A DNA stretch of 64,000 bases from Promethearchaeota archaeon (GTDB taxonomy: Archaea; Asgardarchaeota; Lokiarchaeia; Sigyniarchaeales; SOKP01). Location: NCBI GenBank assembly GCA_016839765.1, contig JAEOTP010000016.1, positions 4,027 to 68,026 on the forward strand, given 5' to 3'. Both the position numbers and the translations under genes were made by a program. Below the pieces are notes generated by a model. It was not told the origin of the DNA. It did not search any database and saw nothing but the letters and a program-made list of their open reading frames with translations. Positions 742-58,137 of this stretch are shown one piece after another; position 1 is the stretch's first letter, and each line of letters opens with the position of its first letter.

Positions 742-771
742 GATTCTTGAAAAATATTCAAGAATCCCCAC
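742..771 (+). other. tRNA-His intron 1 (position 32/33), 30 nt, BHB-type
   Basis: Intron stem ATTCTTGAA/TTCAAGAAT, central helix GGGG/CCCC and 3-nt bulges AC^G and AC^T. Cleavage after the second bulge nucleotide restores the CTGTGAA loop. Confidence 0.88.
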
Positions 772-784
772 TGTGAATCCTTAG

Positions 785-815
785 TGATTGGGGGAATTTC
801 TCTCCTTTCGGGGAA
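785..815 (+). other. tRNA-His intron 2 (variable loop, position 45/46), 31 nt, BHB-type
   Basis: Central helix CCTT/GGGG, bulges AG^T and AA^A, and an imperfect stem GATTGGGGG/TCTCCTTTC. Removal gives a 4-nt AGAC variable loop. Confidence 0.78.
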
Positions 816-961
816 ACGGGGGTTCGATTCCCCCACCGAGCCCTTCTTAATCTATAATTTCTATTTTTTGTTTTAAATTTAAGTATAATTACATAAAATG
901 GAAGATTAAAATCTGTAGAATTATTTTCTTATATAACTGATACTAATTAATATTTGTAATT

Positions 962-1417
962 ATGGGGATATTAGATCAAGAAAAACTTAGAGACATTCCA
1001 GGATGGGAAAAAAATGCGCCCATTCATATTTGTATGGATGCTGATTATCGAGGATTGACATTTTGTTGTAAACCAGGGCATTCACTAACATTTGGCATTA
1101 AGTGTAAAAGAGATCAAATTCTTGATGAGATCGGAATGACCCCACAGGAATTTATTAAGATTAAAGAGGAATTTTCAAAAGAAAATCAATGGAATTCAGA
1201 TTTAGTATGTTTTGGATCACTTTCTTATTGTTGTATGAGGAGAGGAGGCTGCCCAAGGAGAGATCCTGCTTTAGAGTTAAGATATCCTAATAAATCAAAG
1301 GAAGAGAGGATGAGAAAATATTTTCAAAAGAAGAAAGAGTTAGCAAAGAGAATTTTAGAAGCTGTAAATGATTCAAAAGGAAGAGAGAAAGTTAAGCCAT
1401 ATTTAAAATTTTTATAA
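962..1417 (+). CDS. Methanogenesis marker 9-like Cys-rich domain protein
   Basis: WEKNAPIHIC..DYRGLTFCCKP ... MTPQEFIKIKEEF ... CFGSLSYCC...C..RD follows the methanogenesis marker 9 pattern as I recall it (W..APSH.C.GGD.R.LAFCCPP ... CFGSL.WCC). Confidence 0.7.
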   Translation: MGILDQEKLRDIPGWEKNAPIHICMDADYRGLTFCCKPGHSLTFGIKCKRDQILDEIGMTPQEFIKIKEEFSKENQWNSDLVCFGSLSYCCMRRGGCPRRDPALELRYPNKSKEERMRKYFQKKKELAKRILEAVNDSKGREKVKPYLKFL

Positions 1418-1439
1418 ACTTCATTTTTATTAAGGTAAA

Positions 1440-2399
1440 ATGATAATTTCAATAACTCATGAGCATGATTTAGATGGATTAGGATCTCAAGCAATTATAA
1501 AAAGATATTTTGATTTCTTTTATACTGGAGAAAAGCAAGAATTTAAGCAATTCTTCGCTCATTATTTGGATTTTGTTGAAAAAGTTAAAAAAATCTTAAC
1601 TTCAGATTATCTCCCTTCTCAATTAATTATTACAGATATTGGTTTTAATGAGGATTTTAAAGAACTATTCCCAAAATTGGAAGAAGCAAAAAAAAAAGAC
1701 TGCAGGATACTATGGTTTGACCATCACTTAGTTAGTAATGAGATTAAAGAAAAAATTAAACATTTCACATTTCTTTATATGAATGATCCCTTGAGTTGTG
1801 CTGCCGAAATAGTTAAAGATTATTATTTGCCAAATGACTTAATTGCTATAAAAATAGCAGAATTAGCAAGGGATTCAGATTTTAAAACTAATAAATTTCA
1901 ATTCGCTGATGATTTGCAATTAATTATTGGATATAACCGTGGTGACAGTAAATTTCAAGAAAAATTTAAATTGGTTTCCTTATTATCTAGGGGAGATTTT
2001 CAAGAACCCTGGTTTAATACTCAATTAAAGGAGTTAAAAAGTTGGTTTAATGAAGAATCATTTTTTGCCATAAATCAAGCTAAAATTGTTAATATAAAGG
2101 ATTTTGGGGATTTGGCTATTTCATTTGCAAGAATTAGTGGAGGAAAAATTACTGATTTACTTAAAAAAGAATTTCCAAAAATGAGAGCATATATAGGAAT
2201 CGATACGAGATTTGATGAAATCATTATAAATAGCGAATACATTAATTGTAGAGACTTTGCCATTGAGTTTAATGGTGGAGGCCATAAATCAAGGGCAGGA
2301 TTTAAGTATAAACAAATTTTTTCAGAAAAAGGAGTAATAAATCAACAATTTATTCAAGATATTAAAATGAAATTTACTAAATTTAAAACTAAATACTGA
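1440..2399 (+). CDS. DHH/DHHA1 family phosphoesterase (NrnA/nanoRNase-like)
   Basis: HEHDLDG, ITD, WFDHH and C-terminal GGGH motifs. Confidence 0.88.
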   Translation: MIISITHEHDLDGLGSQAIIKRYFDFFYTGEKQEFKQFFAHYLDFVEKVKKILTSDYLPSQLIITDIGFNEDFKELFPKLEEAKKKDCRILWFDHHLVSNEIKEKIKHFTFLYMNDPLSCAAEIVKDYYLPNDLIAIKIAELARDSDFKTNKFQFADDLQLIIGYNRGDSKFQEKFKLVSLLSRGDFQEPWFNTQLKELKSWFNEESFFAINQAKIVNIKDFGDLAISFARISGGKITDLLKKEFPKMRAYIGIDTRFDEIIINSEYINCRDFAIEFNGGGHKSRAGFKYKQIFSEKGVINQQFIQDIKMKFTKFKTKY

Positions 2400-2616
2400 T
2401 CAATAAATTAAGATATTACGAAGGGATATATTGAAAAAATATTTAGATATTTCAATTTAATCGTGAAGATACGTTTCACGAAATCCTCTGAAAAGAACCT
2501 AATTAAATCGACACATTTTTTTTATTTGAGAACATTTATGAAATTTATAACTTACTTTTTTGACGAATGATAAAACACAAATTTTTTAAATAACAAAAGT
2601 TAAAATACAATTTAAT

Positions 2617-2760
2617 ATGCAGTGGGAAAAAGTTATTTCACACGGATACAGAGAAGATTTGTATATTTATAAAGTCTTGACGCCTCATAATGAGACTGCA
2701 GATGACGACAAAAAAATTTTAAAAAATATTCTTTTAGTAGAAATTGGTAGAGAGGAATAA
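2617..2760 (+). CDS. Small 47-aa ORF below the ORF-track cutoff (MQWEKVISHGYREDLYIYKVLTPHNETADDDKKILKNILLVEIGREE)
   Basis: ATG at 2617 and TAA at 2758-2760, in a GC-richer patch of an otherwise AT-rich spacer; convergent with hsp20. Function unknown. Confidence 0.3.
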   Translation: MQWEKVISHGYREDLYIYKVLTPHNETADDDKKILKNILLVEIGREE

Positions 2761-2769
2761 GATAAGGGT

Positions 2770-3438
2770 TTAATCTCCAATTTCTATATTAGTCGTTTTT
2801 TCATCAATTCTTTTTAATTTAATTTCAAGGATCCCATTAACATATCGTGCTTTAGCGTAATCAGAATTGATTGCGGAAGGCAATTTTACTTCCTTAAAAT
2901 ATTTTCTTTTTGATTCTGGCTTAGTTGATATTGTTAAAGAATCTGTTTTTGCTTCTAATAGTATATCATCTCTAGTAACACCAGGCATTTCTGCTATTAT
3001 AATAAGGTGATTTTCATCTTGATTAACTTCTACCATTGGTTCTCTTTTTTTTTTCACCTTTGTTTTGCCCGTGTAAGATTCGGGCTTTATATTACCAAAA
3101 GAATCAACAATTGGTTTTCCATCTGGTCCAGATGTTATATTAAAGCCATACATTATTGGTTCTTTAAAAAATTTCGATCGGTTCTTCCAAATCTCTCTTG
3201 TAAATTCTTCTGGAGAGAGTTTTTCTAGATCTTTGGGTAAACTTTTGGATATTTGCTTAAAAATTTCTTTAAAGATATGTTGAAATTGTTCTGAATTAAA
3301 AACTTTATTAATATCTACATCTTTAAAAAATTTTTTTGGGTCACCAAACAATTTGAATAAATCGATTGGATCCTTATAATCATCTTCCTCATCCTCGTCT
3401 TCATTTCTATCTTTTGGTGGCATGAACTCACAACTCAT
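2770..3438 (-). CDS. hsp20: Archaeal small heat-shock protein Hsp20
   Basis: YGFNIT.GPDGKP..FGN N-terminal motif plus an alpha-crystallin domain (EMPGV..DDI, Y.KE..LP, A.Y.NGILEIKL). The start may be the second ATG (MPPKD). Confidence 0.92.
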   Translation of the reverse strand: MSCEFMPPKDRNEDEDEEDDYKDPIDLFKLFGDPKKFFKDVDINKVFNSEQFQHIFKEIFKQISKSLPKDLEKLSPEEFTREIWKNRSKFFKEPIMYGFNITSGPDGKPIVDSFGNIKPESYTGKTKVKKKREPMVEVNQDENHLIIIAEMPGVTRDDILLEAKTDSLTISTKPESKRKYFKEVKLPSAINSDYAKARYVNGILEIKLKRIDEKTTNIEIGD

Positions 3439-3661
3439 TTACATATGTATAGATATTATGTTCAATTAAATTTTTAAATTTGAATTTAAATATAAATACA
3501 TAAAGTTAAAAAGTTAATAGCTTATATTCTAGAAAAAATTGTTTAGATTAATAAAGTTATTCCAAATAAAAATTTTGTAATTTTATATTAAAAATATTTG
3601 AGAGTGGATTGTTATTTATTCTGATTTAGATGAGGATGAGAAGGAACTTTATCTTGATGTT

Positions 3662-5425
3662 TTGAGAGAGGCGCCTTTATTACCTTTTTCTAATTTCGTA
3701 TCGCGTGGGGATATTCCCGACCGGATCGATATTGCAAGACCAAGAAGTTATATTGATCGTGAAGTTTATCGGCTTGTTCGTCAAACTTATAGAGATAAAT
3801 CATCACGATTAATACCAATTTTAGGATCAGCTGGTACGGGCAAAACACACGCATATCATTCCTTTAAAGATAAAGAACGAGAAAATAGAAAAAAATTAGA
3901 ACAAGTTACTGAAGAAGAAGAAATCGAAGTTAGTCAATTAGAGCCCGTAGATTGGAGTATCGTCTATGTTCCTAGCCCTCCAGCAAGTATTAGAGTTTTG
4001 CTACATGTATATACCTGTATGATTGAAGAATTAGGTGCTGAAATTCTTGATGTTGTCTCAGAAAGATTAGTAAAGGACAAATGGGGTGGTAAGAAAGGAG
4101 GAATCTTTCAAAAACCTAAAATTGATGAGGTTATTCAGAAAGGAATAAGAGAATTTCCTGGTGTTTTTGCAGATTGTGTAAAAGCATTAGTATTATACCA
4201 ACTAGATAAAAACAAAAAGGCTTTAGCAGAAAGATGGCTGCTTGGTGAAGATTTAGAAGATGACGAATTAAATGAATTAGGAATCAACAGTGTTGTTGAG
4301 GAAGATGATGTCTGTTTAGCCATGATTAAAATCATCACAGACAACTTAGATAGAGTTCTTATTCTTTATTTTGACGAGCTTGAATCGCCATATCGTATGC
4401 TTGGTGAAACAGCTGAGCAAAAATTTTTGGAAATCTTAAAAAGATTATATAATGAAGTAAAGGGGCTAGTTATTACCATTGCTGTTTTAAAAGAAATATG
4501 GCCTCGGATTTTAGAAATAGCAGATCCACCTTTACGTTCAAGAATGGAACCTGAACAAGATTTAAAACCATTTAGCTTAAATGATTTAAAGATCTTCTAT
4601 TCAAGGACTATGGAGGCTTTTTGGGACAATAATAATTTGAATCCTCCGCTTTATCCTTTGTTTCCTATAAATGAAAAAATAATAGAAATGATTTATGAAA
4701 AAACGCAAGGAAACCCAAGAAATTCTATAAAGCTTTGCAGGAGATTCATCGATAAAGTGGTGATGGAAGAAATGACTATAGAAGAATTAATGAAAGCTGG
4801 TTCAGAAATAGTTGCTTCCCCTAGGCCCCCAACCATGGAAACTGAAGAGGAAGTAATCGATTTTTCAAAACCAAGAGAAATTGTTAAGAAAACTATAGAA
4901 GAAATTTTAGCAGAAGAAGAATATGCGATAGATGTTAATCCCTCCTCTGTAGCTGGAGCAGCACTAAAAAGTATTATCAAGGTCGGTGAAGAAAAAAGTA
5001 TAAAATTTAAAACACAAATGGAATTTAAATTCAAGTTGGGTAAAAGAAGCCAAACTTTAGCAGCTCTAATTGACACAAAAGATAAAAAATGGGGCTTAGA
5101 AATCCCATCAATAAAAACTTTTGATAGAAGCGCGGGGGTTGCGGGTTATTATGCTGCAAAACGATTGAAAGACGCTATTGATGAAAATGCTATTGACGCT
5201 GCAATTTTAATAGTGCCAACAGGAAGTAGTGGAGCTAAATTTGAAATGATATTAGACAACAATCCAAACATCCGTAAAGTAGAGATCAATAATGAGTTAG
5301 GCGAACAATTAATTGCTAATGCATTATCTTATCCTACTAAGGAAGGATGGGAGATTGCAAAAATTATATTTCCAGATATAGGAGATTATAAGCCTCCTGA
5401 GGAAGAAACCCCTTCAGAAGATTAA
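3662..5425 (+). CDS. AAA+ P-loop ATPase with an uncharacterised C-terminal alpha/beta domain
   Basis: Walker A GSAGTGKT, Walker B LILYFDELE, Arg finger LRSRM and sensor-2 GNPRN. The frame is open upstream to 3602, so the true start may be earlier. Confidence 0.8.
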   Translation: MREAPLLPFSNFVSRGDIPDRIDIARPRSYIDREVYRLVRQTYRDKSSRLIPILGSAGTGKTHAYHSFKDKERENRKKLEQVTEEEEIEVSQLEPVDWSIVYVPSPPASIRVLLHVYTCMIEELGAEILDVVSERLVKDKWGGKKGGIFQKPKIDEVIQKGIREFPGVFADCVKALVLYQLDKNKKALAERWLLGEDLEDDELNELGINSVVEEDDVCLAMIKIITDNLDRVLILYFDELESPYRMLGETAEQKFLEILKRLYNEVKGLVITIAVLKEIWPRILEIADPPLRSRMEPEQDLKPFSLNDLKIFYSRTMEAFWDNNNLNPPLYPLFPINEKIIEMIYEKTQGNPRNSIKLCRRFIDKVVMEEMTIEELMKAGSEIVASPRPPTMETEEEVIDFSKPREIVKKTIEEILAEEEYAIDVNPSSVAGAALKSIIKVGEEKSIKFKTQMEFKFKLGKRSQTLAALIDTKDKKWGLEIPSIKTFDRSAGVAGYYAAKRLKDAIDENAIDAAILIVPTGSSGAKFEMILDNNPNIRKVEINNELGEQLIANALSYPTKEGWEIAKIIFPDIGDYKPPEEETPSED

Positions 5426-5486
5426 GAAAGTTAATGTAAAGAAAATATTATTTTTTCTACTTTTTAATACTTAATTGTCTTATTAT

Positions 5487-9163: not shown

Positions 9164-10477
9164 TCACATGTAATATAGTTTCATTAAATCATCTATTTTA
9201 TTTTCATATACGATTTCAAAAATTTTATTAATCTGAGGCTTATCTAAATATCGTGAAGAAAAGAGAGTGTCCACATCGCTAAAAGCATTATTAATCAACT
9301 GATTCATTTTATTCATATATTCTTCCCGAGAAATCTTTGGTTTCTCAAGATGATTGATAGAAAGTGGACATTGAACTTTTTTCAGAAAGTCCTGCATTTT
9401 TCCCAATAATTCCTTTAAAATTTGATCATTTGCTTTTTTATTCACTTCAACTCCAAAAATTTTTGCTATATCTAGAAATCTATCTGTTACTTTTGCTTGG
9501 TATGCAACAGAAGCGCATAAAAATAATCCTACTGCTACACCATGATGGACATGGAAAATACCTCCAAAGGAATGACCTAAACTATGTTCTAAACCTGCAG
9601 AACCTGTATTTATAAACCCCAATCCTGCAATATAAGCAGCCATTTGCATTTTTTCACGGGCTTCAATATCATTTCTCCTTTTTACTGCCCGAGGTAGAAA
9701 TTCTAAGATCATTTCTATAGCTTTAATGTTATGCATATCCGTATAAGGAGTACTTCCATATAATACATACGATCCTATTGAATGCGCCAAAGCATCTATC
9801 CCAGTACCCATTGTTAAATAAGTCGGCATGGTTTTAGTGAATTCAGGGTTTAAAACTACGATATCAGGACAGAATTCATATAGAGGAACAGCTATTTTTT
9901 TGGGAGGATCTCTTCTTGTATCTGTGACCATCGCATTAAAAGAAGCCTCTGCTCCTGTTCCACTAGTTGTCGGTATAGCCGCTAAAAAATGAACTTTTTT
10001 GCGTAAACCCAAATATGAAGGCATCATCATAGTGTTAACATTCACTAACGGCTGTTCATAGTAAAGTAGAATTATTTTTGCCATATCTATAGCAGAACCA
10101 CCTCCTATAGCTATCATTATCTTTGGGTCATATTCTTTGCATATCTCAACAGCTTGCATTACTGATTTTAAAGGCACTTCAGGAATTACATTATCAAAAA
10201 TACAACTATCAATAGCTCTAAGCTTTTTTAATTGATTAGCAACTTTTTCACCGAATTTCCTTAGTTCTGGATCTACAATAATTAAAGTACGCTTTTCATC
10301 AGGATTTAAACACGCACCCAATAAAATTATGAAATCATTTAGACTGTTCGTTCCAGTAAATGTATACTTGGGCGACACAATAGCACAGTGATATCCGCGC
10401 ATTGCATTACTAGCTGCTTTTAAATATAAATTCCTTAAATTCGGATCTTCATACCAACTAATATCTCTTTTTGACAT
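9164..10477 (-). CDS. Iron-containing alcohol dehydrogenase
   Basis: IGGGSAID, IPTTSGTGAE, DALAH, GLEHSLGH and HVHHG metal ligands. Confidence 0.92.
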   Translation of the reverse strand: MSKRDISWYEDPNLRNLYLKAASNAMRGYHCAIVSPKYTFTGTNSLNDFIILLGACLNPDEKRTLIIVDPELRKFGEKVANQLKKLRAIDSCIFDNVIPEVPLKSVMQAVEICKEYDPKIMIAIGGGSAIDMAKIILLYYEQPLVNVNTMMMPSYLGLRKKVHFLAAIPTTSGTGAEASFNAMVTDTRRDPPKKIAVPLYEFCPDIVVLNPEFTKTMPTYLTMGTGIDALAHSIGSYVLYGSTPYTDMHNIKAIEMILEFLPRAVKRRNDIEAREKMQMAAYIAGLGFINTGSAGLEHSLGHSFGGIFHVHHGVAVGLFLCASVAYQAKVTDRFLDIAKIFGVEVNKKANDQILKELLGKMQDFLKKVQCPLSINHLEKPKISREEYMNKMNQLINNAFSDVDTLFSSRYLDKPQINKIFEIVYENKIDDLMKLYYM

Positions 10478-12117: not shown

Positions 12118-13414
12118 TTAAATCTTCGAGGCGATAAAATCTATGATATCAACAACTTTAATTTTTTCTTTAACCATAGTATCCATTTCTTCATAAGCGT
12201 TGTTTAAGTTATTTATGCAAAATGGACAGCTAGTTGTTAAAATTTGAGCACTACTGTCAACTGCTTCTCTAATACGTTCTTTAGAGATTTTAACCGCTAA
12301 CTCTGGAAATTGGCTTTTTACCCCACCACCCGCGCCACAACACCAAGCATTATTTCTATTTCTCTTCATTTCTATTAATTCAATTCCTGGAATATTAGTA
12401 ATGACTTCACGAGGTATATCATAAAGATTCATGTGGCGACCTAAATGGCAAGGGTCGTGGTAAGTTACCTTTACTTTTTCTCCTTCTTCCTTTTTAAAAG
12501 GAATTTGATTATTATTAAGCAATTCAATTATTATTTCTGTTATATGCTTTACTTCAAATGGTAATTTTTCACCTAATAATTCAGGATAATCTTTTTTCCA
12601 CGTTCGATAACATCCTGCACAAGCGGTAAAGAGAGTCTTAGCACCCCTTTCCTTGAATTCTTCAATATTATGTTTAATCGTTTCAGTTAATGATTTTTCA
12701 TCACCAATACGTATGGCAATTGAGCCACAACACCATTCATCTTTGGTCATTGCTATTTCTTTTCCTGCCGCTTTTAAAATTTTCATCATATTTTTTAATG
12801 TTTCTACCTGTCTTAAAGGTATACTACATCCCCCAAAAAACATTAGTTCTCCCTTTTCCTTAATTTCGGGAAATTCTTTTATCCAATCGAATTTTTCATC
12901 TATATCCTCCCCATATGGATTTCTCATCTTATCATCGTTCATATATTCGACTAAATCACTATGTCTTTCAAGAGGAGCAAAACCAGCTTCAACCAAATCT
13001 TTTCTTAATGCATCCCAAACTTTAACATGATCAATCCAATTACACGTAGGGAGGGTAATATATTCATTTTGAGACATATGACATACTTCAGTACAATTTC
13101 CACATACCGAGCATTGATATACCCATTCTGCAAGCTCTCTACTCAATGGGATTTGTCCTTCTAATATACTCTTGAGGACATTCATCCTCCCTCTTGAAAA
13201 ATATAATTCAAATCCCTCATCTTCCATTGCCTCTTTAACGGGACATGTCAGATATCTCCCAACAACAGGTCGAATGGCGTAACCACAATCTCCACAACCC
13301 AGGCAGGGTTTACGATCGATATCATAAACCTTTCTGCGATCATGGATAATTTCCAAAACCTATACAAGAGAATATGGCTTTCCATTCCTTTTTTAGATGT
13401 TTTAATTCACTCAT
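12118..13414 (-). CDS. HdrD/GlcF-like Fe-S oxidoreductase subunit (2x ferredoxin motif + 2x CCG domain), intron-containing: join(13414..13362,13300..12118), 411 aa
   Basis: ATG at 13414, 10 nt after the SDR stop. The spliced N-terminus is MSELKHLKKEWKAIFSCMGCGDCGYAIRPVVGRYLTCPV. Downstream motifs are CSVCGNCTEVC, WCCGS, CAGC, YHDPCHLGR, CCGAGGG and SCPFC. The ORF track starts this gene at TTG 13356, inside intron A. Confidence 0.85.
13301..13331 (-). other. mRNA BHB intron B, 31 nt (AGGTTTATGATATCGATCGTAAACCCTGCCT)
   Basis: 10-bp stem GGTTTATGAT/ATCGTAAACC, 4-bp central helix GCAG/CTGC, 3-nt bulges AA^A and CT^G, and a 9-bp outer helix TCCATGATC/GGTTGTGGA (with G-U pairs). Confidence 0.85.
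13332..13361 (-). other. mRNA BHB intron A, 30 nt (AGGTTTTGGAAATTATCCATGATCGCAGAA)
   Basis: Stem GGTTTTGGA/TCCATGATC (8 of 9 pairs), central helix TTGT/GCAG, bulges AT^A and AA^G (after B is removed). It contains an in-frame TGA at 13342-13340. Confidence 0.8.
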
Positions 13415-36613: not shown

Positions 36614-38122
36614 TTGGTTAAAAGGTTAAGGTTTATGAGCTATAAATTAGCAGATGAAAAAGATTTAGAAGCTATGATTGGTATTGTGGGAAAAGATTAT
36701 GCTACCAATAACAAGGCAATTACAGCGTCATATCTTTCCAAATCTGTAATGGGATTAGAGTCACAAATTCCTGATATCGTCATACGCCCTAAATACGTAG
36801 AAGAGATTCGTAAAATACTACTTTACTGCTCTGCAGAAAAAATTGCAGTCTCACCGATTTCAGCCGGACTATCTGGCGGTTTTGCGTGTCCGACTATTAA
36901 GCCTGCTGGAGTTATGCTTGATTTAGGTAGAATGAATAGAATTATCGAAGTCGATACAGAAAATCGATATGTCGTAGTCGAACCGGGAGTCACGATTGGA
37001 GAGCTGTGGGCTTACATGCACAAGAATTATCCAGAGTGGGCGCCTCCCGTACCAGACGGTGCTCCACCAGCTTCTACCGTAATGGGTGATGCTATCGATC
37101 GAGGGTTTTCCCTTTACACTAGTTCCGTTGGTCCACAAGGTGATAATTTTATGTGCGGTGAGATAGTGTTTCCAAATGGAGATATTGTGCGAACCGGTTC
37201 TTGGGCTCTTCCATTTGCGAAACCGTTCTATAAATACGGACTAGGTCCAGATATCTGGTCCTTTTTAATGGGTTCACAAGGAGCTCTAGGCGTAATGACT
37301 AAAGTTGCAGTTAAAATATATCCACATCCAAAATTTAAGACTGTAGTTGTGTGGGGCATGTCCAATCCTGAGGATATGCAGAACTTAACACTTGAAATTG
37401 GAAAACAAGAATTTGGAATTGCACACAACACCGTTATGGTTCAAGGTGGGAACTATCCATTAGTAATGACACGTTGGCCAAAAGATAAAGTTCCTCACGA
37501 TTATGAATTCTACGAACAGCTAGGAATTAGTAAGTGGTGGATGAATTGGGAGTGCTGGGCACAAACTCAAGAAGAGTTAGATTATGTGGTTAATAGAATC
37601 AATAAAATGGCTGAAGATTTTAAGAAAAATAGAGCTAAAGATCCTGATGGTATAAAACCTCAGGAACTACATCCCAAACAAATCGCAAGCAGATTGAAGA
37701 AACCCAATAAGATTGCGATTCCTTATTCATTCTGGGAGGCAGGATTTTTATTCATTACGTTCTATACACCATGGAACGAATGCGCCCATTTTGCTGAAAT
37801 GTACTGTAAAGCTATGGAAGATCGAGGATTTCCACCAGTAATGTGGATTGCTAGTATTGAGCGTTGTAGGCAAGCAATTTGTATGCCAATTATTTGTTTC
37901 GATAGCACAAAACAATCAGATTTCGAAAAAGTTCAAGAGATGAATAGAGAAACAACAGAATACGCGCTTAAGCAAGGGTGGTTGAATTATCGTCCAGATC
38001 CATACATCCATGCACCTCTCACTTATTCTCAAGCAGGAATGTATTGGAAATATTTGAGGATGATGAAGAAAATGTTTGATCCTAATATGATAATGCATCC
38101 CGGAAGACTTGCTCTTCCTTAA
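36614..38122 (+). CDS. FAD-binding oxidoreductase (GlcD/VAO superfamily); likely start ATG 36636
   Basis: PDIVIRP, MLDLGRMNRIIEVD, VEPGVT, G.IVRTGS, GPD....MGSQG..GVMT and FDPNMIMHPG. Confidence 0.9.
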   Translation: MVKRLRFMSYKLADEKDLEAMIGIVGKDYATNNKAITASYLSKSVMGLESQIPDIVIRPKYVEEIRKILLYCSAEKIAVSPISAGLSGGFACPTIKPAGVMLDLGRMNRIIEVDTENRYVVVEPGVTIGELWAYMHKNYPEWAPPVPDGAPPASTVMGDAIDRGFSLYTSSVGPQGDNFMCGEIVFPNGDIVRTGSWALPFAKPFYKYGLGPDIWSFLMGSQGALGVMTKVAVKIYPHPKFKTVVVWGMSNPEDMQNLTLEIGKQEFGIAHNTVMVQGGNYPLVMTRWPKDKVPHDYEFYEQLGISKWWMNWECWAQTQEELDYVVNRINKMAEDFKKNRAKDPDGIKPQELHPKQIASRLKKPNKIAIPYSFWEAGFLFITFYTPWNECAHFAEMYCKAMEDRGFPPVMWIASIERCRQAICMPIICFDSTKQSDFEKVQEMNRETTEYALKQGWLNYRPDPYIHAPLTYSQAGMYWKYLRMMKKMFDPNMIMHPGRLALP

Positions 38123-38144
38123 TTGAGTAAGGAGGTAAAAAAAA

Positions 38145-39569
38145 ATGGCTAAAACTGGAATGGAAAGATTAAAAGAATTAGAGAAGGAAATATATAAGTG
38201 TATTCACTGTAAAGCATGTAGATTTGCTTATTCGGGAGAGCCCAGTAGAGAAGGGATAGGGGAATATACAGGTAAACAGGGTACAGTTCTTTATGAAGGA
38301 ATGGTTGACGCATGTCCAGCTGGAATAGAATACGGTTGGGAAGCGTTTTGGAACGCCGGTAAAATTTGGATTGCTCGTTCAATTTTAAGCGGAGATTTAG
38401 ATTTTTCTGATGAAGTAAGGGATGTTATAATGCCTTGTATTACTTGTGGACAATGCAGTGCTCAATGTGATAATAAAATTCCAACTGTTGATATTATCGA
38501 ATCATTACGAGCAGCATGTAATGAAGCGGGTATTCCAATGATAGAAAAGCATGAATTAGTGGATAGGCTTGTAAAGGAACTCAATAATCCTTACGGTGGA
38601 AAAGCTGCAGAACGCTTTAAATGGGCAAAAGATGCCGGATTAGAGAAATTTGTTGATAATAAAGAAGCAAAAATTGGCTACTATGTAGGTTGTACTGCAT
38701 CATACCGTCAAGTGGAAGTCGCAATAGCAACTGCGAAACTTTTTGAAATGTTGGGCATCAACTTTACTTTAGTTGGTGATGAGGTATGTTGTGGAAGTCC
38801 TTTCTTTAGAATAGGAGCTGTTGACACTGCACAAGAACTAATGAACAAAAATCTCGAGGCTTTTAAAGGTTTAGAAATGGTTTACTTCAGTTGTGCTGGA
38901 TGTTATAGGACAATCACTTTAGATTATCCAAAATGGATGCCTGAGGGTTCCAAACTACCTTTCAAAACACAACACGCATTTGAATTAGTCACTCGATTAA
39001 TCCAACAAGAAAAAATCAAATTCAAGCCAAATAAAGAGTTAAAAGGAAAGATAGTTACCTATCACGACCCGTGCCATACTGGTCGTCATTTCGGAGTTGA
39101 TTTTGAGCAAGAACTTATCAAACAAAGCAAGAATTTAATGTTCGATATGAGAAAAATCAAAGAGAAAATTGATAAATGGTTTGAAATTCCAAGAATTATT
39201 CTTAGAAAGCTTGAAGAGGATGTTGGAATCGAATTTAGAGAAATGTATCGTATAAAACTGAATAGTATGTGCTGTGGGGCAGGTGGTGGTGTCCGTGCTG
39301 GATATCCTGATTTCTCAATACGCACTGCTAGTTTACGATGTGATGAAGCAAATGCAGTAGAAGCAGATATTTTGACAACCGAATGTCCTTTTTGCTGGAG
39401 GAATCTAACGGATGCTAATGAACTATACAATCATGGCATGAAAGTTATGGGTGTTTTACAAATGATTACTGAATATAATTTATTAGAAATCTTAGATAAT
39501 CCGACTGAAAAAGATTTCTTGACCTCCTCTATAAGGGAACTTGAAGCAGATTCCGAAAAGAAGAAATAA
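38145..39569 (+). CDS. HdrD/GlcF-like Fe-S protein with two CCG domains (intronless paralogue of 12118-13414)
   Basis: CIHCKAC...CP, CITCGQCSAQC, VCCGS, CAGC, YHDPCH, CCGAGGG and ECPFC. Confidence 0.92.
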   Translation: MAKTGMERLKELEKEIYKCIHCKACRFAYSGEPSREGIGEYTGKQGTVLYEGMVDACPAGIEYGWEAFWNAGKIWIARSILSGDLDFSDEVRDVIMPCITCGQCSAQCDNKIPTVDIIESLRAACNEAGIPMIEKHELVDRLVKELNNPYGGKAAERFKWAKDAGLEKFVDNKEAKIGYYVGCTASYRQVEVAIATAKLFEMLGINFTLVGDEVCCGSPFFRIGAVDTAQELMNKNLEAFKGLEMVYFSCAGCYRTITLDYPKWMPEGSKLPFKTQHAFELVTRLIQQEKIKFKPNKELKGKIVTYHDPCHTGRHFGVDFEQELIKQSKNLMFDMRKIKEKIDKWFEIPRIILRKLEEDVGIEFREMYRIKLNSMCCGAGGGVRAGYPDFSIRTASLRCDEANAVEADILTTECPFCWRNLTDANELYNHGMKVMGVLQMITEYNLLEILDNPTEKDFLTSSIRELEADSEKKK

Positions 39570-51997: not shown

Positions 51998-52007
51998 TTT
52001 CGCCCTC

Positions 52008-52445: not shown

Positions 52446-52545
52446 GATAGAGGGAGTAAATTTAAAATTAAAAAAAAACATAACAAAATTCAAAATTAAA
52501 AAAAAATAATGAATTAAATTTAAGATATTTTGTTTCCTATTTACT

Positions 52546-52755
52546 TTAGAAGTATTTAATGGCTAAAAGGATGTCGTCTCGAGTTACTTTCTTTCTTTTT
52601 GAATGCTTTGTTAAACTCAAGGCAGATTTAGTTATTTTTTCAGCTGCCATACCCATCCAATCAACTAGTTCATCCACTGCGTCACGGGCAACAATTATTG
52701 CGCCATTATGTTTCATTAATCTTCTAATAGGACTCCAACTAATATATTCAGACAT
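52546..52755 (-). CDS. Archaeal histone (HMf/HMt family)
   Basis: SPIRRLMK..GA..VA.DAV ... A...TKHSKRKKVTRDDI histone-fold signature, 69 aa. Confidence 0.92.
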   Translation of the reverse strand: MSEYISWSPIRRLMKHNGAIIVARDAVDELVDWMGMAAEKITKSALSLTKHSKRKKVTRDDILLAIKYF

Positions 52756-53194
52756 TTTCTATTCCTCCACTTTTTTATTATTATATTGATATTTTTATTG
52801 ATTTTTGTTATTATTTAATGGTTAGTTAAATAGTAATATATCTTCTATATATTTAAAGATTTTGATGCATACATGATTTTATGAGGAATAAAATGAAAAA
52901 AATATCACGACAAAATTCAGAAATGGTAAAAAGATCAATCTCGTAAAAGTTAGATTTTTTTTATGGAAATTAGAGTTTCGTTAAATATTAAAATTATAAG
53001 ATATAGTAAGATGTCTATTTTCTTCCTCTTTCACTAAACCATGTTTATCTTAAGAAAGATAAAAAATTTGATCAAATTCTGAGATGCTCAATTAAGAATT
53101 TTTGTGTTTTCAATAAGTTAGTAAGTTTCAATTTATATGGAAAAATTGAGGCGAATTAATCAAGTTAATTAAGATTATCCATGAGTTTTAGGAT

Positions 53195-53560
53195 TTGATT
53201 GATATGAGGAAAGAAATCAAAAAAGATTTTATTAATCTCGATTTTTATGAAGGTTTAAGGGCTTATTTTAGCAGCGCTTATACATTTGATCAATGGGGAT
53301 CGACTTGGCAATACGATCAATTGCTTTTTGTTGATGGATATGTAATTTCATCCGATTTATATTATGATTGGACTTTCAATGACAAATTAATAACTCGTGT
53401 ATTATAGGTTGCTCACTGGGATGATGTTCCTGATAGAATTTATCAGTATCTCCTAGAATTGGAGGTGTCTGGAGTAATATCCTACGGAAATTTCTTTTTA
53501 GTGTTTGCAGGGATTACAATTATCTCATTAATTTATGTCTATAAAAAGAAAGAGGTTTAA
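53195..53560 (+). pseudogene. C-terminal remnant of a Loki-CTERM-anchored surface protein with in-frame TAG at 53405
   Basis: The frame continues past TAG as VAHWDD...SGVISYGNFFLVFAGITIISLIYVYKKKEV to TAA 53558. No signal peptide or intact N-terminus is present. Confidence 0.6.
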
Positions 53561-53641
53561 AGTTAAATTAATTCTCTTTCTTAAATTTTTTTTTCGTAAG
53601 CTCTGAAGATAAGATTATAAAAATAACAAATTCTTAAAAAA

Positions 53642-54634
53642 CTAAGACCATATTATTTTTTCATATTTGCATTTAGTACATTCTACGGATTCCCCTTTTT
53701 TTGGAAAAAAAGGTAAGACGGTTCCACAATAATTGCATTCTAAATCATAAATTTGGTCTAAAGTTTCTATTATATTTTCAATTACTAATCGATTTGAGAA
53801 TTCAGTTACGAAATTTGTTAAAATAGAAATAATTATATGAGGATTTTGGGAAGCTACCAACACCTCGATCTTATTAGATTTAAGTTGTCCAATTACTAAT
53901 AGATCAGCCCCTGAAACTAACTCTGTTCCGAAATACCAAGCAATTCTTTTCTCATTATCTTTAATAATTAGTTGAAAGTTGTGATCTTCAATTGTTTGGT
54001 TAAGTTGATAAAATAAATAATCGAAATCATGAATGTTTTCGATACCAATTCCAAAACTCTTAATGCCCCGCTTTATATCTGTTAATTGAAGAAAGCTCCG
54101 TACTTCAGAGCTAGGTAAAATTTTTCTTTCGACAGAGATTGGATCAAATTTTATTGTAACGGGGTCTGAGTCAAGAGCTCGTACAAAATCTGCATTATTT
54201 ATGAAAGTAACGTATGATCTAATTTCGCCATTTTCTTCTAATAACAATGGAGTAAAAAAATTATTTATTTGCTTTTGGGAATTTTCATCTAATTTTTCAA
54301 ACTCAATTCGAATCTGCTTTTCATTTTCTTCAATTAAATCAGAATCTATAATAACCTTTGGTGGGTTACTCCTATTTAGTTGTAAAAAGTCGGGATATCT
54401 TATTCTAATTTTAATTTCTGTAATAGGAGCCATACTTTGGTTGATAATAAGGAGTGAATAAAGGTAATTTCCTCCAAAAGGTTCTAGCTTACATACTAAT
54501 TTTATCTTATTCTCTTGATCTATATATTCTAATGATACTACTTCTTGTTTTTGAGTTTGTTGTGATTTAACATCTCTAAATACGACTAATCCTTGAATGT
54601 CTTTTGGATTGTTATCATCAGGGTTATTTTTCAT
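53642..54634 (-). CDS. Hypothetical: Ig-like sandwich + alpha/beta platform + C-terminal zinc ribbon (adaptin-appendage-like architecture)
   Basis: Beta-rich LYSLLIINQS.APITEIKIRI...QKQINNFFTP, then a KSFG...AWYFGT platform and CNYCG...CTKC. Confidence 0.55.
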   Translation of the reverse strand: MKNNPDDNNPKDIQGLVVFRDVKSQQTQKQEVVSLEYIDQENKIKLVCKLEPFGGNYLYSLLIINQSMAPITEIKIRIRYPDFLQLNRSNPPKVIIDSDLIEENEKQIRIEFEKLDENSQKQINNFFTPLLLEENGEIRSYVTFINNADFVRALDSDPVTIKFDPISVERKILPSSEVRSFLQLTDIKRGIKSFGIGIENIHDFDYLFYQLNQTIEDHNFQLIIKDNEKRIAWYFGTELVSGADLLVIGQLKSNKIEVLVASQNPHIIISILTNFVTEFSNRLVIENIIETLDQIYDLECNYCGTVLPFFPKKGESVECTKCKYEKIIWS

Positions 54635-54760
54635 GGCACTATTAGTATATAACCGACATAAAGAATTTCTATCGTTATTATTAAAAAAGAATATTCTTCC
54701 TTTTATTTTTTTTGACCTTATATTTTTTTTATATATGGATTCTAAATATATATAAAGGTT

Positions 54761-55456
54761 ATGAAAGATTTTGAAGAATTAGATCCTCTCTTTGAGAGCA
54801 AAACAATTAAACCTTCTTTCGATTATGTTCATGTTATTTTAGCTATATTATTATTTGGAGATAACCCTGAAGGTTTGGGAAGATATCGTCTAAAAGAAGA
54901 ATTAATAATAGGAGGAGGTACAGCAAAATCTCTTGTTAAAAAATTAAAGGAAGAGGGCGGTTTTATAGAAGTTCATGTTAAGAATAGTAATAATAAGCAA
55001 CAAATAAAGTCAAAAGGACATGTGTTGACTGAAAGGGGTCTACAGATTCTAATGAAAATTAAAAATAAAATCCCCTTATTAGATGAAGGAGATGTTTCTA
55101 GTTTAAAAAATTTCATAATCAATTCTGAGATTTCAAAATTATATTATTGTTTGGTTAGAGGTGCTGCTGATCGTTTAAAAAGTGGTGTTGAACAAAGAGA
55201 TGCCGCAATTAGATTAGGGGGATTAGGAGCTACTTGCCTTATTTATAATGGAAATGAATTATTATTTCCCTCGTTTTCCTCAGGACAGGAAAATTATGGA
55301 GTAAAAATAAACGATAAAGTTCAATTATACTTCAAAACAAAATTAGTTAATGTAAATATATCTTTTGAAAGAGGAGATGTTATTATTATAGGATCTGGTG
55401 TTAATATAAGAAAAGCAAGGTTAGCGGCTTTGAATGCTGCACTAACTTTATTATAA
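54761..55456 (+). CDS. DUF4443/DUF2111-like winged-helix protein
   Basis: GLGRYRLKEEL.IG.GTAKSL, GH.LTE.G, SGVEQRDAAI..GG.GATCL and GDVIIIG. Confidence 0.7.
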   Translation: MKDFEELDPLFESKTIKPSFDYVHVILAILLFGDNPEGLGRYRLKEELIIGGGTAKSLVKKLKEEGGFIEVHVKNSNNKQQIKSKGHVLTERGLQILMKIKNKIPLLDEGDVSSLKNFIINSEISKLYYCLVRGAADRLKSGVEQRDAAIRLGGLGATCLIYNGNELLFPSFSSGQENYGVKINDKVQLYFKTKLVNVNISFERGDVIIIGSGVNIRKARLAALNAALTLL

Positions 55457-55461
55457 AGAGG

Positions 55462-55971
55462 GTGCTATATATTAGAAACTTAAAATTTGAGAAAGATATA
55501 AAACTTTTCATCAATCAAGATATTTATAAAAAGATAGAACAATGTGTTGATAAAGCTTATCCTAACGAGGCATGTGGTCTAATTTATGGAAAAATTGAAG
55601 AAATCAAGAAAATCAATTTCGAAAATGATTATTCTTATTATTATTATACTAAAAAATTTGAGTGTATAGAATCCTCATTTGAAAGTCCTGTAGCTTTTCT
55701 AATGGATGATTATCTCAAATTAAAAGAAATATCTGAAAAATTTTTAAAAAACTTCAATTTACAATTAATAAGTATCTTTCATTCTCATCCAGGTGGAGCT
55801 TATCCAAGTGGCGTTGATATACCATATATGAGAAGTTACTATGAAGGTAAAATTATAAAATTTAAACATATTATTTGGACAATAATGGATGCTCAAAACA
55901 AAGTATTAAATGGTTTTATCTATATTTTTGATGAACTTAGACAAATTAATATAGATTTTCTTAAGAAGTAG
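55462..55971 (+). CDS. JAB/MPN (JAMM, M67) metalloprotease
   Basis: PNEACGLI and FHSHPGGAYPSGVD (intact E...HxH...S..D). Confidence 0.88.
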   Translation: MLYIRNLKFEKDIKLFINQDIYKKIEQCVDKAYPNEACGLIYGKIEEIKKINFENDYSYYYYTKKFECIESSFESPVAFLMDDYLKLKEISEKFLKNFNLQLISIFHSHPGGAYPSGVDIPYMRSYYEGKIIKFKHIIWTIMDAQNKVLNGFIYIFDELRQINIDFLKK

Positions 55972-55985
55972 TTATTTAAAAAAAA

Positions 55986-56627
55986 TCATTGAATTTGTTT
56001 ATAACCATCTTTAGTAATAATACATAATTGAATTTTAAATCCAGATGCAGCGTCTCTTTCACGAGAGCTAGAAATAGCTGTTTTCACTAATTCAATTCCT
56101 ACATTTGAAGTCATACCAGGCTTCCAATCAGCTTCTAATACACCTAAGGAGAAAGGTCCTCCAGACCCAAAAGCTATAAAATTTTCTTCTTCATAAAGGG
56201 TGCCTAACAAGTCAACTCCATAAAGTTTACCCTTCTTCTCTTTTACTGAGTAACCCCCAATTATCATCATAGCGAGATAATATGATCTGCCACTGAATAA
56301 AATGTTTCTTGTAACGCTAGCAATATGCTTAGGCTCAGGAACTTTTTCCTCTTCAACTTCTTTTAATTTAGATAATGCTGTGAGTTGATTAACTATATAC
56401 TGGCAATCCGCTACCCCTCCAGAAATAGTTGCACATGTATAATCATTTATCTTAAAAAGTTTCTGAGCTTGTTTTGTAGCAACAGTATATCCTGCAGTAG
56501 CTTGAGATTCCGTTCCTACTACGATACCATCCTTTACGATTATTCCAACCGTTGTAGTACTTGATTTAATGATTTTTTCTAAAGAATTTTTATCTAAATT
56601 TAATTTTTTTGCAATATTTTCCATCAT
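55986..56627 (-). CDS. psmB: Proteasome beta subunit
   Basis: Propeptide followed by TTTVGI, ESQATAG, K.FKI, SGGVADCQ and GSG. Confidence 0.95.
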   Translation of the reverse strand: MMENIAKKLNLDKNSLEKIIKSSTTTVGIIVKDGIVVGTESQATAGYTVATKQAQKLFKINDYTCATISGGVADCQYIVNQLTALSKLKEVEEEKVPEPKHIASVTRNILFSGRSYYLAMMIIGGYSVKEKKGKLYGVDLLGTLYEEENFIAFGSGGPFSLGVLEADWKPGMTSNVGIELVKTAISSSRERDAASGFKIQLCIITKDGYKQIQ

Positions 56628-56791
56628 TTTTCTATTATACTTTAAATTACTTTTCTGATAAACTAATTGTTATAATGAATAAATTAATTTTTAGTATATT
56701 TATTTTACTTTTACAGATTATAAACATTTAAATACAAAAATTTTAAAGAAATCATTACCTTTACTACTTACTAATTTAATGATGGTATGTC

Positions 56792-57169
56792 ATGGCTCGT
56801 TCTCAAGCAAGATCAAAAAGAAAATACACAGGAAAAAAATATAAACACTTTAGAAAGAAGAGAAAAAGAGAATTAGAACGCCCTCCCATAGAAACCAGAG
56901 TAGGAGAAGAAAAGAAGAAAAAGCAGAGAGTATTGGGAGGAAATCAAAAGCTTAAATTATTTTCATCTCTATACTTGAATGTTACAGATCCTAATAGCAA
57001 TCAAACTTCCAAGGTGAGAATTTTAAGATTTGATAGTAATGACGCTTCTAAGGATTATAACCGAAGACACATTTTAACTAAAGGTGCGATTGTTGAAACA
57101 GAGCTAGGAAAAGCAAAAGTAACATCTAGACCCGGACAGCACGGAGTTTTAAATGGTGTTTTAATCTAA
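56792..57169 (+). CDS. rps8e: 30S ribosomal protein S8e
   Basis: RSKRK.TG.KY..FRKKRKRELERP, RVLGGN.K, ILTKGAIVETELG.A.VTSRPGQHG.LNG. Confidence 0.97.
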   Translation: MARSQARSKRKYTGKKYKHFRKKRKRELERPPIETRVGEEKKKKQRVLGGNQKLKLFSSLYLNVTDPNSNQTSKVRILRFDSNDASKDYNRRHILTKGAIVETELGKAKVTSRPGQHGVLNGVLI

Positions 57170-57541
57170 TTATTCTTGAATCTTTATATTTTTAACATTT
57201 GCTTTCTTACCTTCAACTATTTCTGTGTTTTTACTCTCACAAAACTTACATTGAAATAATTGAAGTCCAGTTAATTGAGCTTCTTCACTTAAAGTTACTG
57301 TTGATACTTTTCCACATTCCCTACATTTTATTTTACCAGGTACGATCTCAATTTTTAATTCTGCTCCCTCTGCAATTGAGCCAGAAGTTGCCATCTTAAA
57401 TGATTGGCGTAGAAGTTGGGGAACAATTAAAGTTAATTCACCAACTTCTAAATATACTTCAGTAATTTTTTGAGCATTATATTTTAGAGCAGTAGCTTCT
57501 GCTATTTTAAAAATATCATAGGCAAAGGCAAATTCATGCAT
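57170..57541 (-). CDS. hypA: Hydrogenase maturation nickel metallochaperone HypA
   Basis: MHE N-terminus, VGELT, CRECG ... CKFC and EIVEG. Confidence 0.93.
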   Translation of the reverse strand: MHEFAFAYDIFKIAEATALKYNAQKITEVYLEVGELTLIVPQLLRQSFKMATSGSIAEGAELKIEIVPGKIKCRECGKVSTVTLSEEAQLTGLQLFQCKFCESKNTEIVEGKKANVKNIKIQE

Positions 57542-57550
57542 AATAACGAT

Positions 57551-57847
57551 TTATCTCTTGGATTGTGTCTTTTTTAATTCCTTTGCTAATTCAATTAATA
57601 CTTTAGATTTTTTCTTTCCTTTAGTATCTACTAAGATTCTTCCTGGTTCATCCCACCAAGTTCTCGAATATTTATAATTCTTTTCATGTTGAACATTATA
57701 CCCTAAACGCTTAGCAGCATTGTAAAGATCATTTGAATGTATTTTTTCTACGGCAAATTTTCTAGGAATACGCCTACCCTCTGCTCTACTCCTCTTTAAA
57801 TCAAAATATTGAGGCCAGAAGATAATAAAAGGTTTCCGAGAGCGCAT
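57551..57847 (-). CDS. srp19: Signal recognition particle subunit SRP19
   Basis: IFWPQYFD..RSR.EGRRIP, Y.R.WW..PGR and KSKVL..LA. Confidence 0.93.
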   Translation of the reverse strand: MRSRKPFIIFWPQYFDLKRSRAEGRRIPRKFAVEKIHSNDLYNAAKRLGYNVQHEKNYKYSRTWWDEPGRILVDTKGKKKSKVLIELAKELKKTQSKR

Positions 57848-58033
57848 GAAATTATCAAGGTTTTCTATTTTTAAAAATTATAAGTTTAAAAACCCTCTAA
57901 AGAATTTAAAAATTATTAGTACATTGTATAAGGATAATTAAAAATAAATAGAATTTAAGATTTTTAAGTATACAAAACTAAGATAACGCTATTCCAAGTT
58001 CTAAACTCTGAAACTGACATCCCTTTTTTGAAT

Positions 58034-58137
58034 GGGAGGGTGGTCTAGCTTGGTATGATACATTAGCTTGGTTCTTTCAAACTAAATCTAATCGGCTGGG
58101 GGCCGAGTGGTCGGGGGTTCAATTCCCCCCTCTCCCA
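58034..58137 (+). tRNA. tRNA-Pro(GGG) with a non-canonical intron at 27/28
   Basis: Acceptor GGGAGGG/CTCTCCC, D-arm GTCT-AGCTTGGTA-TGAT, T-arm GGGGG-TTCAATT-CCCCC and discriminator A58137. Removing 58062-58091 gives anticodon arm CTCGG-CTGGGGG-CCGAG. CCA is not encoded. Confidence 0.9.
58062..58091 (+). other. tRNA-Pro intron (27/28), 30 nt, relaxed BHB
   Basis: Stem TTAGCTTGG/TCAAACTAA (8 of 9 pairs), central TGAT/ATCT (3 pairs + U-U) and bulges AC^A and AA^T. Confidence 0.8.

Follow-up and report, generated by a model that had tools for sequence, protein, structure and literature searches.

Short inserts of about 30 nucleotides (nt) interrupt two tRNA genes and one protein gene in a 64,000-nt stretch of archaeal DNA (contig JAEOTP010000016.1, positions 4,027 to 68,026; hereafter the window). 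Are these inserts genuine introns, and how do they come to be present in some relatives and absent from others? A first-pass annotation of the window had proposed five introns of the bulge-helix-bulge (BHB) type: two in tRNA-His, one in tRNA-Pro, and two in an mRNA, here called intron A and intron B. All five exist with the lengths and at the positions proposed, and the restored products, the covariation, and the intron-less orthologues described below bear out BHB-type introns in two tRNAs and one mRNA. We consider it likely that the five inserts are genuine BHB introns, mostly of the relaxed HBh' form, and that exchange of alleles by recombination and removal of intron B before intron A are part of the same explanation.

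The window has about 30% G+C. Homologues of its proteins come nearly all from Asgard metagenome-assembled genomes (MAGs), which their submitters label Promethearchaeota, Lokiarchaeota, Hodarchaeota, Hermodarchaeota, or Thorarchaeota. The host is therefore an Asgard archaeon (Promethearchaeota) and not a member of the Thermoproteales, and the Thermoproteales framing in which the introns had first been placed is inapplicable. For searches of sites and copies we used 1.39 Mb of related DNA. Relatives are numbered as loci (L001 and so on).

A twin insert in an HdrD-like gene

The first-pass annotation gave no coordinates for its two mRNA introns. The sole pair of segments that fits the layouts 1+9+5+9+4+2 and 1+10+4+10+4+2 lies at 13361-13301 on the minus strand, in a gene for an HdrD-like (Fe-S)-binding protein. 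Source records name the homologues "(Fe-S)-binding protein" or "heterodisulfide reductase subunit D"; the domains of the product are Pfam PF02754 (CCG) and, in relatives, PF13183 (4Fe-4S dicluster). Exon 1 (13362..13414, minus strand) holds 17 codons and the AT of the Met18 codon (MSELKHLKKEWKAIFSC). Intron A (13332..13361, minus strand; 30 nt) consists of A, the arms GGUUUUGGA and UCCAUGAUC on either side of the loop AAUUA, then GCAG, which pairs with UUGU of the exon, and AA. Intron B (13301..13331, minus strand; 31 nt) consists of A, the arms GGUUUAUGAU and AUCGUAAACC around the loop AUCG, then CUGC and CU; the GCAG of intron A serves as its 5' central strand. Exon 2 (12118..13300, minus strand) supplies the G of Met18 and continues as GCGDCGYAIRP... 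to the stop codon. The two introns directly abut, head to tail inside the Met18 codon and 53 nt into the gene, with zero exon bases between them.

If left unspliced, the frame that opens at ATG 13414 stops inside intron A (TGA). When the 61 nt are removed, AT meets G, and the product, of 411 amino acids (aa), begins MSELKHLKKEWKAIFSC-M-GCGDCGYAIRP. The predicted exon junction is TCTTGTAT|GGGTTGTGG, and the predicted N-terminal peptide of the spliced protein includes MSELKHLKKEWKAIFSCMGCGDC / MSELKHLKKEWKAIFSCMGCGDCGYAIR. This N-terminus, MSELKHLKKEWKAIFSCMGCGDCGYAIRP, is also that of intron-less 411-aa homologues (P0012, P0015, P0020, and P0025, for example); dozens of insert-free 411-aa homologues share it and cover 100% of the spliced query. 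Both introns have to be removed: taking out A alone leaves a frameshift and early stops, and taking out B alone leaves the in-frame stop in A. The two mRNA introns of the first-pass annotation are thus real and of the lengths given, but they form one twin insert in one gene and do not represent independent invasions.

The window also encodes a second pair made up of a FAD-binding oxidase and a CCG/4Fe-4S protein (36614-38122 and 38145-39569, plus strand; 502 and 474 aa), which is insert-free. That region, 36614-39569, has the highest G+C content of the window (0.35).

Conservation of exon 1 and covariation of the inserts

A scan of one genome per species yielded 80 related loci. With further loci and the window added, the state of the AT|G site in the Met18 codon could be scored in 81. 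Fifty-four score as empty, although for one of these, L032, which is cut at its contig end, the score is unreliable. A single insert is present in 19 loci, and two inserts are present in 8. Intron A, found in 26 loci besides the window (29-34 nt), measures 29 nt in 3 loci, 30 nt in 12, 31 nt in 11, and 34 nt in 1. Intron B, found in 7 loci besides the window, measures 26 nt in 1, 30 nt in 1, and 31 nt in 6. Exon 1 is an intact open reading frame (ORF) in 27/27 intron-bearing loci, opening with ATG in 25, TTG in L041, and ATT in L064. It encodes the same conserved peptide throughout, and second codon positions are the least variable (diversity 4.16/1.10/5.09). Since this constrained ORF is intact in every intron-bearing locus, exon 1 is translated and splicing is therefore required. 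We conclude that the hdrD intron has a long history and a wide distribution in Promethearchaeota, and that close relatives repeatedly differ in whether it is present or absent.

RNAalifold, run without guidance on 26 A introns with 12-nt flanks, recovered the stem, a 3-nt bulge, and the central 4-bp helix between exon and intron; both bases have changed in 9 of 12 pairs. Scored over the full BHB of intron A, 86.4% of cells are paired compared to 71.7% in column shuffles, and none of 500 shuffles reached the observed value. The covariation score is 0.538, compared to 0.264 for shuffled columns, and it is at most 0.178 in every slid register. The covariation extends into the coding sequence, with the third base of the Ser16 codon in the exon covarying with the last base of the central strand of A (columns 7/45). 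Intron B shows the same architecture; among relatives, the strand that it shares with A changes from GCAG/CUGC to GCGG/CCGC, an A-U to G-C switch.

Codon choice beside the site differs between alleles. At Ser16 and Cys17, intron-less alleles often have AGC or AGT followed by TGC, and intron-bearing alleles have TCN-TGT (last 15 nt of exon 1 in L046 vs L065 and in L005 vs L008). With TCN-TGT, the exon provides NUGU, the strand to which the intron pairs, and a switch of serine codon family needs at least two substitutions.

Geometry and stability of the five motifs

In each 3-nt bulge, the cut made by the splicing endonuclease follows the second base, and any BHB intron is therefore divided into 1 nt, an inner element, 4 nt, and 2 nt. 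The shared layout of 1 + hairpin + 4 + 2 that had been taken to mark a distinctive class is present in all five introns, but it is the generic partition of a BHB cut site; because it follows from the cut positions, it is not an independent regularity. The inner elements themselves are non-uniform, with contiguous stems of 5-10 bp, some with internal loops. Naming the tRNA introns by the positions that they separate, stems are perfect only in His-32/33 and B, with 7/9 positions paired in His-45/46, 8/9 in Pro, and 8/9 in A.

An inner hairpin is present in all five introns, and the bulges fall at the exact exon junctions. The central helix is complete (4/4) in His-32/33, His-45/46, A, and B, and has 3/4 pairs in Pro. 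The outer helix has 0-1 bp in the three tRNA introns and 2 bp in A. Only B has a full one, which comprises 9 bp including G-U pairs and joins the 3' arm of A to exon 2. The introns other than B are relaxed HBh' motifs, a class that broad-specificity EndA, the archaeal splicing endonuclease, is known to accept as substrate (PMC5829648).

Idealised BHB energies are -13.4 kcal/mol for B, -10.0 for His-32/33, -9.5 for His-45/46, -4.6 for A, and +1.5 for Pro. An initial pair-count descriptor scan, on the plus strand only, gave about 190 raw matches with overlapping registers counted separately, and was replaced by an energy-scored scan with shuffled controls. In the window the latter detected 3 BHB motifs at or below -10 kcal/mol, compared to a mean of 0.5 in 10 dinucleotide shuffles, and two of the three are B and His-32/33. 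The third (63098-63129, plus strand; 10-bp stem, -10.7 kcal/mol) was rejected as a chance match: it is antisense to an intact 223-aa ORF (62841-63512, minus strand; ...SIGGLIPPIT...), and about 0.5 such motifs are expected per shuffled window.

Introns in tRNA-His and tRNA-Pro

The gene for tRNA-His(GTG), with an encoded G-1, occupies 709..842 on the plus strand and carries two introns. The first (742..771, plus strand; 30 nt) lies between positions 32 and 33 and has the central helix GGGG/CCCC, bulges AC|G and AC|U, a perfect 9-bp stem, and the loop AAAUA. The second (785..815, plus strand; 31 nt) lies between positions 45 and 46 and has the central helix CCUU/GGGG and bulges AG|U and AA|A; its inner hairpin has 5-6 contiguous bp only, within the 7/9 counted in the register of the first-pass annotation. 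ARAGORN finds zero tRNAs in the raw window. It calls a tRNA-His(GTG) cloverleaf once both segments are deleted; with a single insert deleted there is no standard cloverleaf. Intron-less tRNA-His genes in L086 (from a metagenome) and L054 read GGGGAC|TGTGAATCCTTAG|ACGGGGG. Because their exons are identical to those of the window, the junctions are fixed to the base.

Other relatives retain introns in this gene. The tRNA-His genes of L085 and L087 are near-identical to that of the window, and a G-to-A change in them turns a G-U pair of His-45/46 into an A-U pair. An orthologous His-32/33 intron of 30-31 nt is present in L085, L087, L057, and L032. The gene in L057 has two introns of 31 nt each, and the gene in L032 (about 10063-10227, minus strand) has three, the extra 30-nt one being in the D-loop (15/16 or 16/17). 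In both of these loci the central helix is still 4/4 although the intron sequences differ. Among relatives, tRNA-His thus carries 0, 2, or 3 introns.

The gene for tRNA-Pro(GGG) (58034..58137, plus strand; Rfam RF00005, 35.9 bits) has one 30-nt intron between positions 27 and 28 (58062..58091, plus strand). This is the weakest BHB of the five and lacks an outer helix. Deletion of the insert produces a clean cloverleaf that ARAGORN calls as tRNA-Pro(ggg). We reached the tRNA-Pro neighbourhoods of relatives via the adjacent SRP19 gene. In L088, L089, L092, and L093, a 30-nt intron is kept at 27/28, with a compensatory G-C to A-U double change in the stem. In L090, the tRNA-Pro gene upstream of SRP19 has no intron at 27/28; its intron, of 29 nt, lies at the canonical 37/38 site instead.

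The tRNA-His gene escapes standard tRNA finders altogether, and tRNA-Pro also goes undetected by ARAGORN. With its intron search switched on, ARAGORN miscalls the two genes as tRNA-Glu and tRNA-SeC, and Rfam at its gathering threshold sees tRNA-Pro alone in the window. The tRNA complements of such MAGs are likely undercounted. A tRNA-intron census of the 1.39 Mb was set aside: only tRNA-His (in the window and three loci) and the tRNA-Pro of the window were present, and a T-arm-like match in L020 proved to be coding.

Intron length and occurrence

Across the window and about 30 relatives, introns at eight sites (among them His 15/16, 32/33, and 45/46, Pro 27/28 and 37/38, and hdrD A and B) measure 26-34 nt, with a mode of 30-31 nt and nearly all at 29-31 nt. 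The clustering in size noticed in the first pass is therefore confirmed. The comparison of presence and absence across relatives that it proposed shows that every one of these sites is polymorphic.

The size class had also been thought peculiar to this lineage. Introns, frequently more than one per gene and away from the canonical position, have been reported in 92-95% of the tRNA genes of three other Asgard genomes, one from Freyarchaeia and two from Atabeyarchaeia (PMC11291895). The 121 predicted tRNA introns that we parsed from the supplement of that study, for one Atabeyarchaeia and one Freyarchaeia genome, range from 9 to 257 nt with a median of 28 nt; 21% measure 29-31 nt and 52% measure 26-34 nt. 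Since introns of these other Asgards also peak near 28-31 nt, our data do not support a lineage-specific class. A mode of about 28-31 nt is a broader Asgard trait, and the present lineage looks tighter as judged from two tRNAs and one gene only.

Transposition, inheritance, or allele exchange

The case for intron transposition in Thermoproteales rests on similar intron sequences at different sites, a pattern that is not seen here. In the 1.39 Mb of related DNA, no second kind of site was found for A, B, or the His or Pro introns at up to 5 mismatches. The matches were orthologous sites, a truncated hdrD paralogue in L008, or scattered chance matches with 5 mismatches. Similarity between sites is weak: His-32/33 against A gave a p-value of about 0.003 in structure-preserving shuffles, which is not robust over 21 comparisons. 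Introns of 26-34 nt cannot encode a mobility protein such as a homing endonuclease or reverse transcriptase.

We also looked for introns hidden in coding sequences. BHB candidates whose removal restores an ORF numbered 125 of 49,742 (0.25%) in the 1.39 Mb, compared to 245 of 137,748 random deletions (0.18%), which is no enrichment; this screen needs at least 70 codons on each side and would miss introns near gene starts, such as those of hdrD. Its matches were rejected, as they fell at boundaries between genes on the same strand or in conserved coding motifs such as MEVVLPTGEI of the FAD oxidase. For window ORFs with orthologues among the fetched loci, tblastn (gaps of 6-14 aa) revealed no 10-codon intron-like indels and showed low-complexity linker indels only. 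There is accordingly no evidence for the hidden in-frame copies that the first-pass annotation had envisaged, BHB motifs being about as frequent as in random deletions. Scans of the window and of the 1.39 Mb found no BHB excess in coding sequences, and the sole strong extra motif in the window is the one antisense to an ORF. The suggestion of the first-pass annotation that introns spill over into mRNAs is only partly supported, as no intron sequence turned up at another kind of site and coding sequences show no excess.

The truncated paralogue in L008 (12803-12900, plus strand) is a second hdrD copy, downstream of a second FAD-oxidase gene. It runs from exon 1 through an A intron of subtype GGUUUUGGA into the beginning of B, after which the DNA is unrelated. 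The intact hdrD gene on the same contig has the other A subtype and lacks B.

These negative results are what would be expected if the introns were real but immobile, with one ancient insertion per site that was inherited and then lost precisely many times. The length of about 30 nt would then be that of the shortest hairpin able to hold a BHB, maintained by selection and deletion bias in an AT-rich mesophile. Other Asgard classes also have a mode of 26-32 nt within a broad range, and in orthologous introns the stems are altered by compensatory substitutions but the length is kept, both of which fit such a history. We regard it as possible but do not favour it. A loss-only history needs many exact independent losses, some of them between hosts that are 95-97% identical: host proteins with 97.2%, 96.7%, and 94.9% identity differ in intron state, 32/81 loci have their nearest neighbour in another state, and the states are interleaved on a neighbour-joining (NJ) tree of the host protein. 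The alternative positions of the tRNA-Pro intron, 27/28 in some relatives and 37/38 in L090, also stand against one inherited insertion.

Simple deletion furthermore predicts no disturbance of the flanking sequence, yet changes of state coincide with patches of flank divergence. We compared close pairs (less than 9% gene-body divergence) over the 113 nt around the site, about 55 nt each way. The ratio of flank to gene-body divergence has a median of 3.1 in six state-discordant pairs vs 1.05 in seven concordant pairs (L005/L008, p = 1e-5; L023/L041, p = 2e-6). L001 and the window have the same gene order and an identical exon 1 (53/53), but their A introns differ at 15/30 positions, every one of them within the stem arms, and L001 lacks B. 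A single A subtype (GGUUUUGGA...UCC) is shared by all the twin-intron loci, although their host genes are scattered on the tree. The simplest reading of these sequence patterns is that intron-plus and intron-minus alleles have been exchanged by homologous recombination through the conserved exon flanks. Movement would then consist of allele exchange by recombination together with local duplication, rather than transposition.

Local duplication is suggested by the likeness of the two hdrD introns. Compared within loci, A and B are alike (z up to 5), with 20/30 identical positions in L026 (structure-preserving shuffles, p = 0.001). B is probably a tandem copy made locally at the splice junction. 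A further likeness, confined to twin loci, links the opening 16 nt of A to the opening 16 nt of exon 2 (AGGTTTTGGAAATTAT vs GGGTTGTGGAGATTGT; 13346-13361 vs 13285-13300, minus strand), with 12/16 matches in the window and 7-12/16 in twin loci, compared to a null of 3.8 (standard deviation 1.7); no single-intron locus shows this. The likeness fits a tandem duplication at the junction but could equally reflect convergence, because both segments pair with the 3' arm of A and the second pairing forms the outer helix of B. The loci concerned are the window, L002, L003, L009, L012, L026, L042, and L044, and in them B starts similarly. As for A or B being a copy of the first 30 nt of exon 2, similarity over the full length reaches only z 2-3, and the strong signal is limited to the opening 16 nt of A.

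A bolder proposal is that Asgards hold a living population of endonuclease-dependent introns of about 30 nt, with de novo gain in protein genes by tandem duplication at an existing splice junction (B from A, with the 5' half of A resembling the start of exon 2), stacking into order-dependent twins, and recombinational spread between lineages via conserved exon flanks. We offer it tentatively and think it rather unlikely. If true, protein-gene introns could arise without a spliceosome in the archaea most closely related to eukaryotes.

Readings without splicing

Public gene calls for intron-bearing hdrD genes invite a different view, in which the inserts are never spliced, translation starts internally (at TTG 13356, or at a TTG or ATG giving 'QKGCGDC' in single-insert relatives), and exon 1 is a decaying remnant. 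The called products are either a 412-aa protein beginning MEIIHDRRK... (12118-13356, minus strand; P0001) or 396-398-aa proteins beginning M/L-QKGCGDC (calls of these kinds are P0001, P0002, P0008, and P0011). In the window's clade, the ORF from TTG 13356, which lies inside A, reads through A and B into exon 2 and retains the C-x-x-C-x-x-C motif (P0001), as C-L-G-C-G-D-C. The 396-398-aa products lack the first cluster cysteine, however, and in at least one further twin-insert locus (L012) a stop codon interrupts the read-through ORF. A decaying remnant is also hard to reconcile with an exon 1 that is intact in every intron-bearing locus, encodes the same peptide as in intron-less homologues, and varies least at second positions, and the covariation of the insert RNA structure includes pairing with exon bases. 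We consider translation without splicing very improbable and conclude that the public N-termini of intron-bearing hdrD genes are wrong.

The read-through ORF of the window's clade keeps its C-L-G-C-G-D-C only because the CUGC strand of B chances to encode a cysteine.

Ribosome bypassing of the kind known from phage T4 gene 60, or a programmed frameshift, might also restore the frame, and a stable hairpin with an early in-frame stop (the TGA in A) just past the take-off region would suit it. Bypassing cannot assemble the Met18 codon from the AT of exon 1 and the G of exon 2, there are no matched take-off and landing codons, and the same type of motif interrupts tRNAs, which lie outside translation. 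We find this explanation hardly credible. Readings of the locus as a pseudogene or of the inserts as chance hairpins were also rejected.

Proposed splicing and its order

If the inserts are spliced as BHB introns, as we favour, the 4-nt exon strand would pair after transcription with the 4-nt strand near the 3' end of the intron. This would leave a 3-nt bulge on either side of the central helix, with a 22-24-nt hairpin closing the intron. EndA would presumably cut both bulges, and an RtcB-type ligase would join the exons. Asgard EndA has been reported as an (alpha-beta)2 enzyme with an L1 loop and a broad substrate range (PMC5829648).

In the hdrD precursor, GCAG is both the 3' central strand of A and the 5' central strand of B, and it cannot pair with UUGU and CUGC simultaneously. 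Because A and B share this one strand, B would have to leave first. Its excision would place exon 2 beside the 3' bulge of A (AA|G), with a 3-bp outer helix, making A removable. If A were removed first, the strand upstream of B would become UUGU, which forms 2/4 pairs with CUGC; the 31-nt B would then stay in the message and shift the frame. The helix of B forms in the minimum free energy fold of the precursor, and its motif is more stable than that of A (-13.4 vs -4.6 kcal/mol). We infer a fixed order of splicing, B and then A.

Several points weigh against the view that these are spliced BHB introns exchanged by recombination. Splicing of all five is predicted here from DNA sequence alone. 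A Pfam scan of 20 window ORFs detected neither EndA nor RtcB, and the enzyme type assumed here is that of PMC5829648. Pro-27/28 and A are thermodynamically weak and inseparable from the shuffle background by structure alone, and Pro fails the filter of the scan; for these two, comparative evidence instead of structure argues for their validity. In the window's clade, an unspliced product from the TTG 13356 ORF is conceivable. As for exchange, the NJ tree is rough and paralogues exist (two copies in YT_039 and the truncated copy in L008), and the patchy distribution may partly reflect paralogy. Three of the six discordant pairs involve L041, and the excess flank divergence could partly be due to exon bases adapting to pair with the intron.

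Comparison with known systems

BHB introns in protein genes are otherwise documented essentially for one gene, cbf5, to which hdrD adds a second gene family. Our literature search, which was incomplete, turned up neither a BHB intron in any Asgard protein gene nor abutting BHB introns with a shared helix strand in an mRNA. The intron in cbf5 pre-mRNA of Crenarchaeota (Desulfurococcales and Sulfolobales; PMC2738675) resembles the present case in that a short intron lies in a protein gene, its junction restores a conserved protein, its presence among species is patchy, and it misleads gene prediction. The HdrD-like case differs in the gene, in the phylum (Asgard), and in the site, which is 53 nt from the start codon. 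It differs also in having two adjacent introns that share a central-helix strand and mosaic flanks, and in that its splicing is deduced here from sequence. The hdrD intron occurs in about one third of the 81 loci, and with 0, 1, or 2 introns and mosaic flanks the site is a natural experiment in gain, loss, and exchange within the lineage nearest to eukaryotes. This does not imply that such introns are common in Asgard mRNAs, as hdrD is the sole case within the sequence examined.

The tRNA introns are less novel. Those of Thermoproteales and of the Asgard groups Atabeyarchaeia and Freyarchaeia (PMC11291895) are alike in occurring several per tRNA, at positions other than 37/38, with relaxed BHB motifs, in genes that tRNA finders miss and in a host clade for which the (alpha-beta)2 endonuclease with the L1 loop has been reported (PMC5829648). 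Those described here come from another Asgard lineage and measure 29-31 nt at five tRNA sites, compared to the 9-257 nt published. Abundant non-canonical tRNA introns were therefore already known in Asgards (PMC11291895). For the hdrD intron, we found no earlier report in the literature searched.

We know of no earlier description of a head-to-tail intron pair with a fixed splicing order in an mRNA. Ordered removal of introns from multiple-intron pre-tRNAs was reportedly described by Tocchini-Valentini and co-workers (PNAS, 2009). The likeness is that one BHB forms only after another intron has been removed or refolded; in hdrD the introns touch, share a 4-nt strand, and lie in an mRNA. Splicing of HAC1 and XBP1 by Ire1 and a tRNA-type ligase such as RtcB offers a further parallel, since there too an mRNA intron is recognised by its structure, the exons are joined by a tRNA-type ligase, and the reading frame changes. 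In that system, the nuclease is Ire1 and not EndA, the recognised elements are twin stem-loops and not a BHB, and splicing is regulated by stress.

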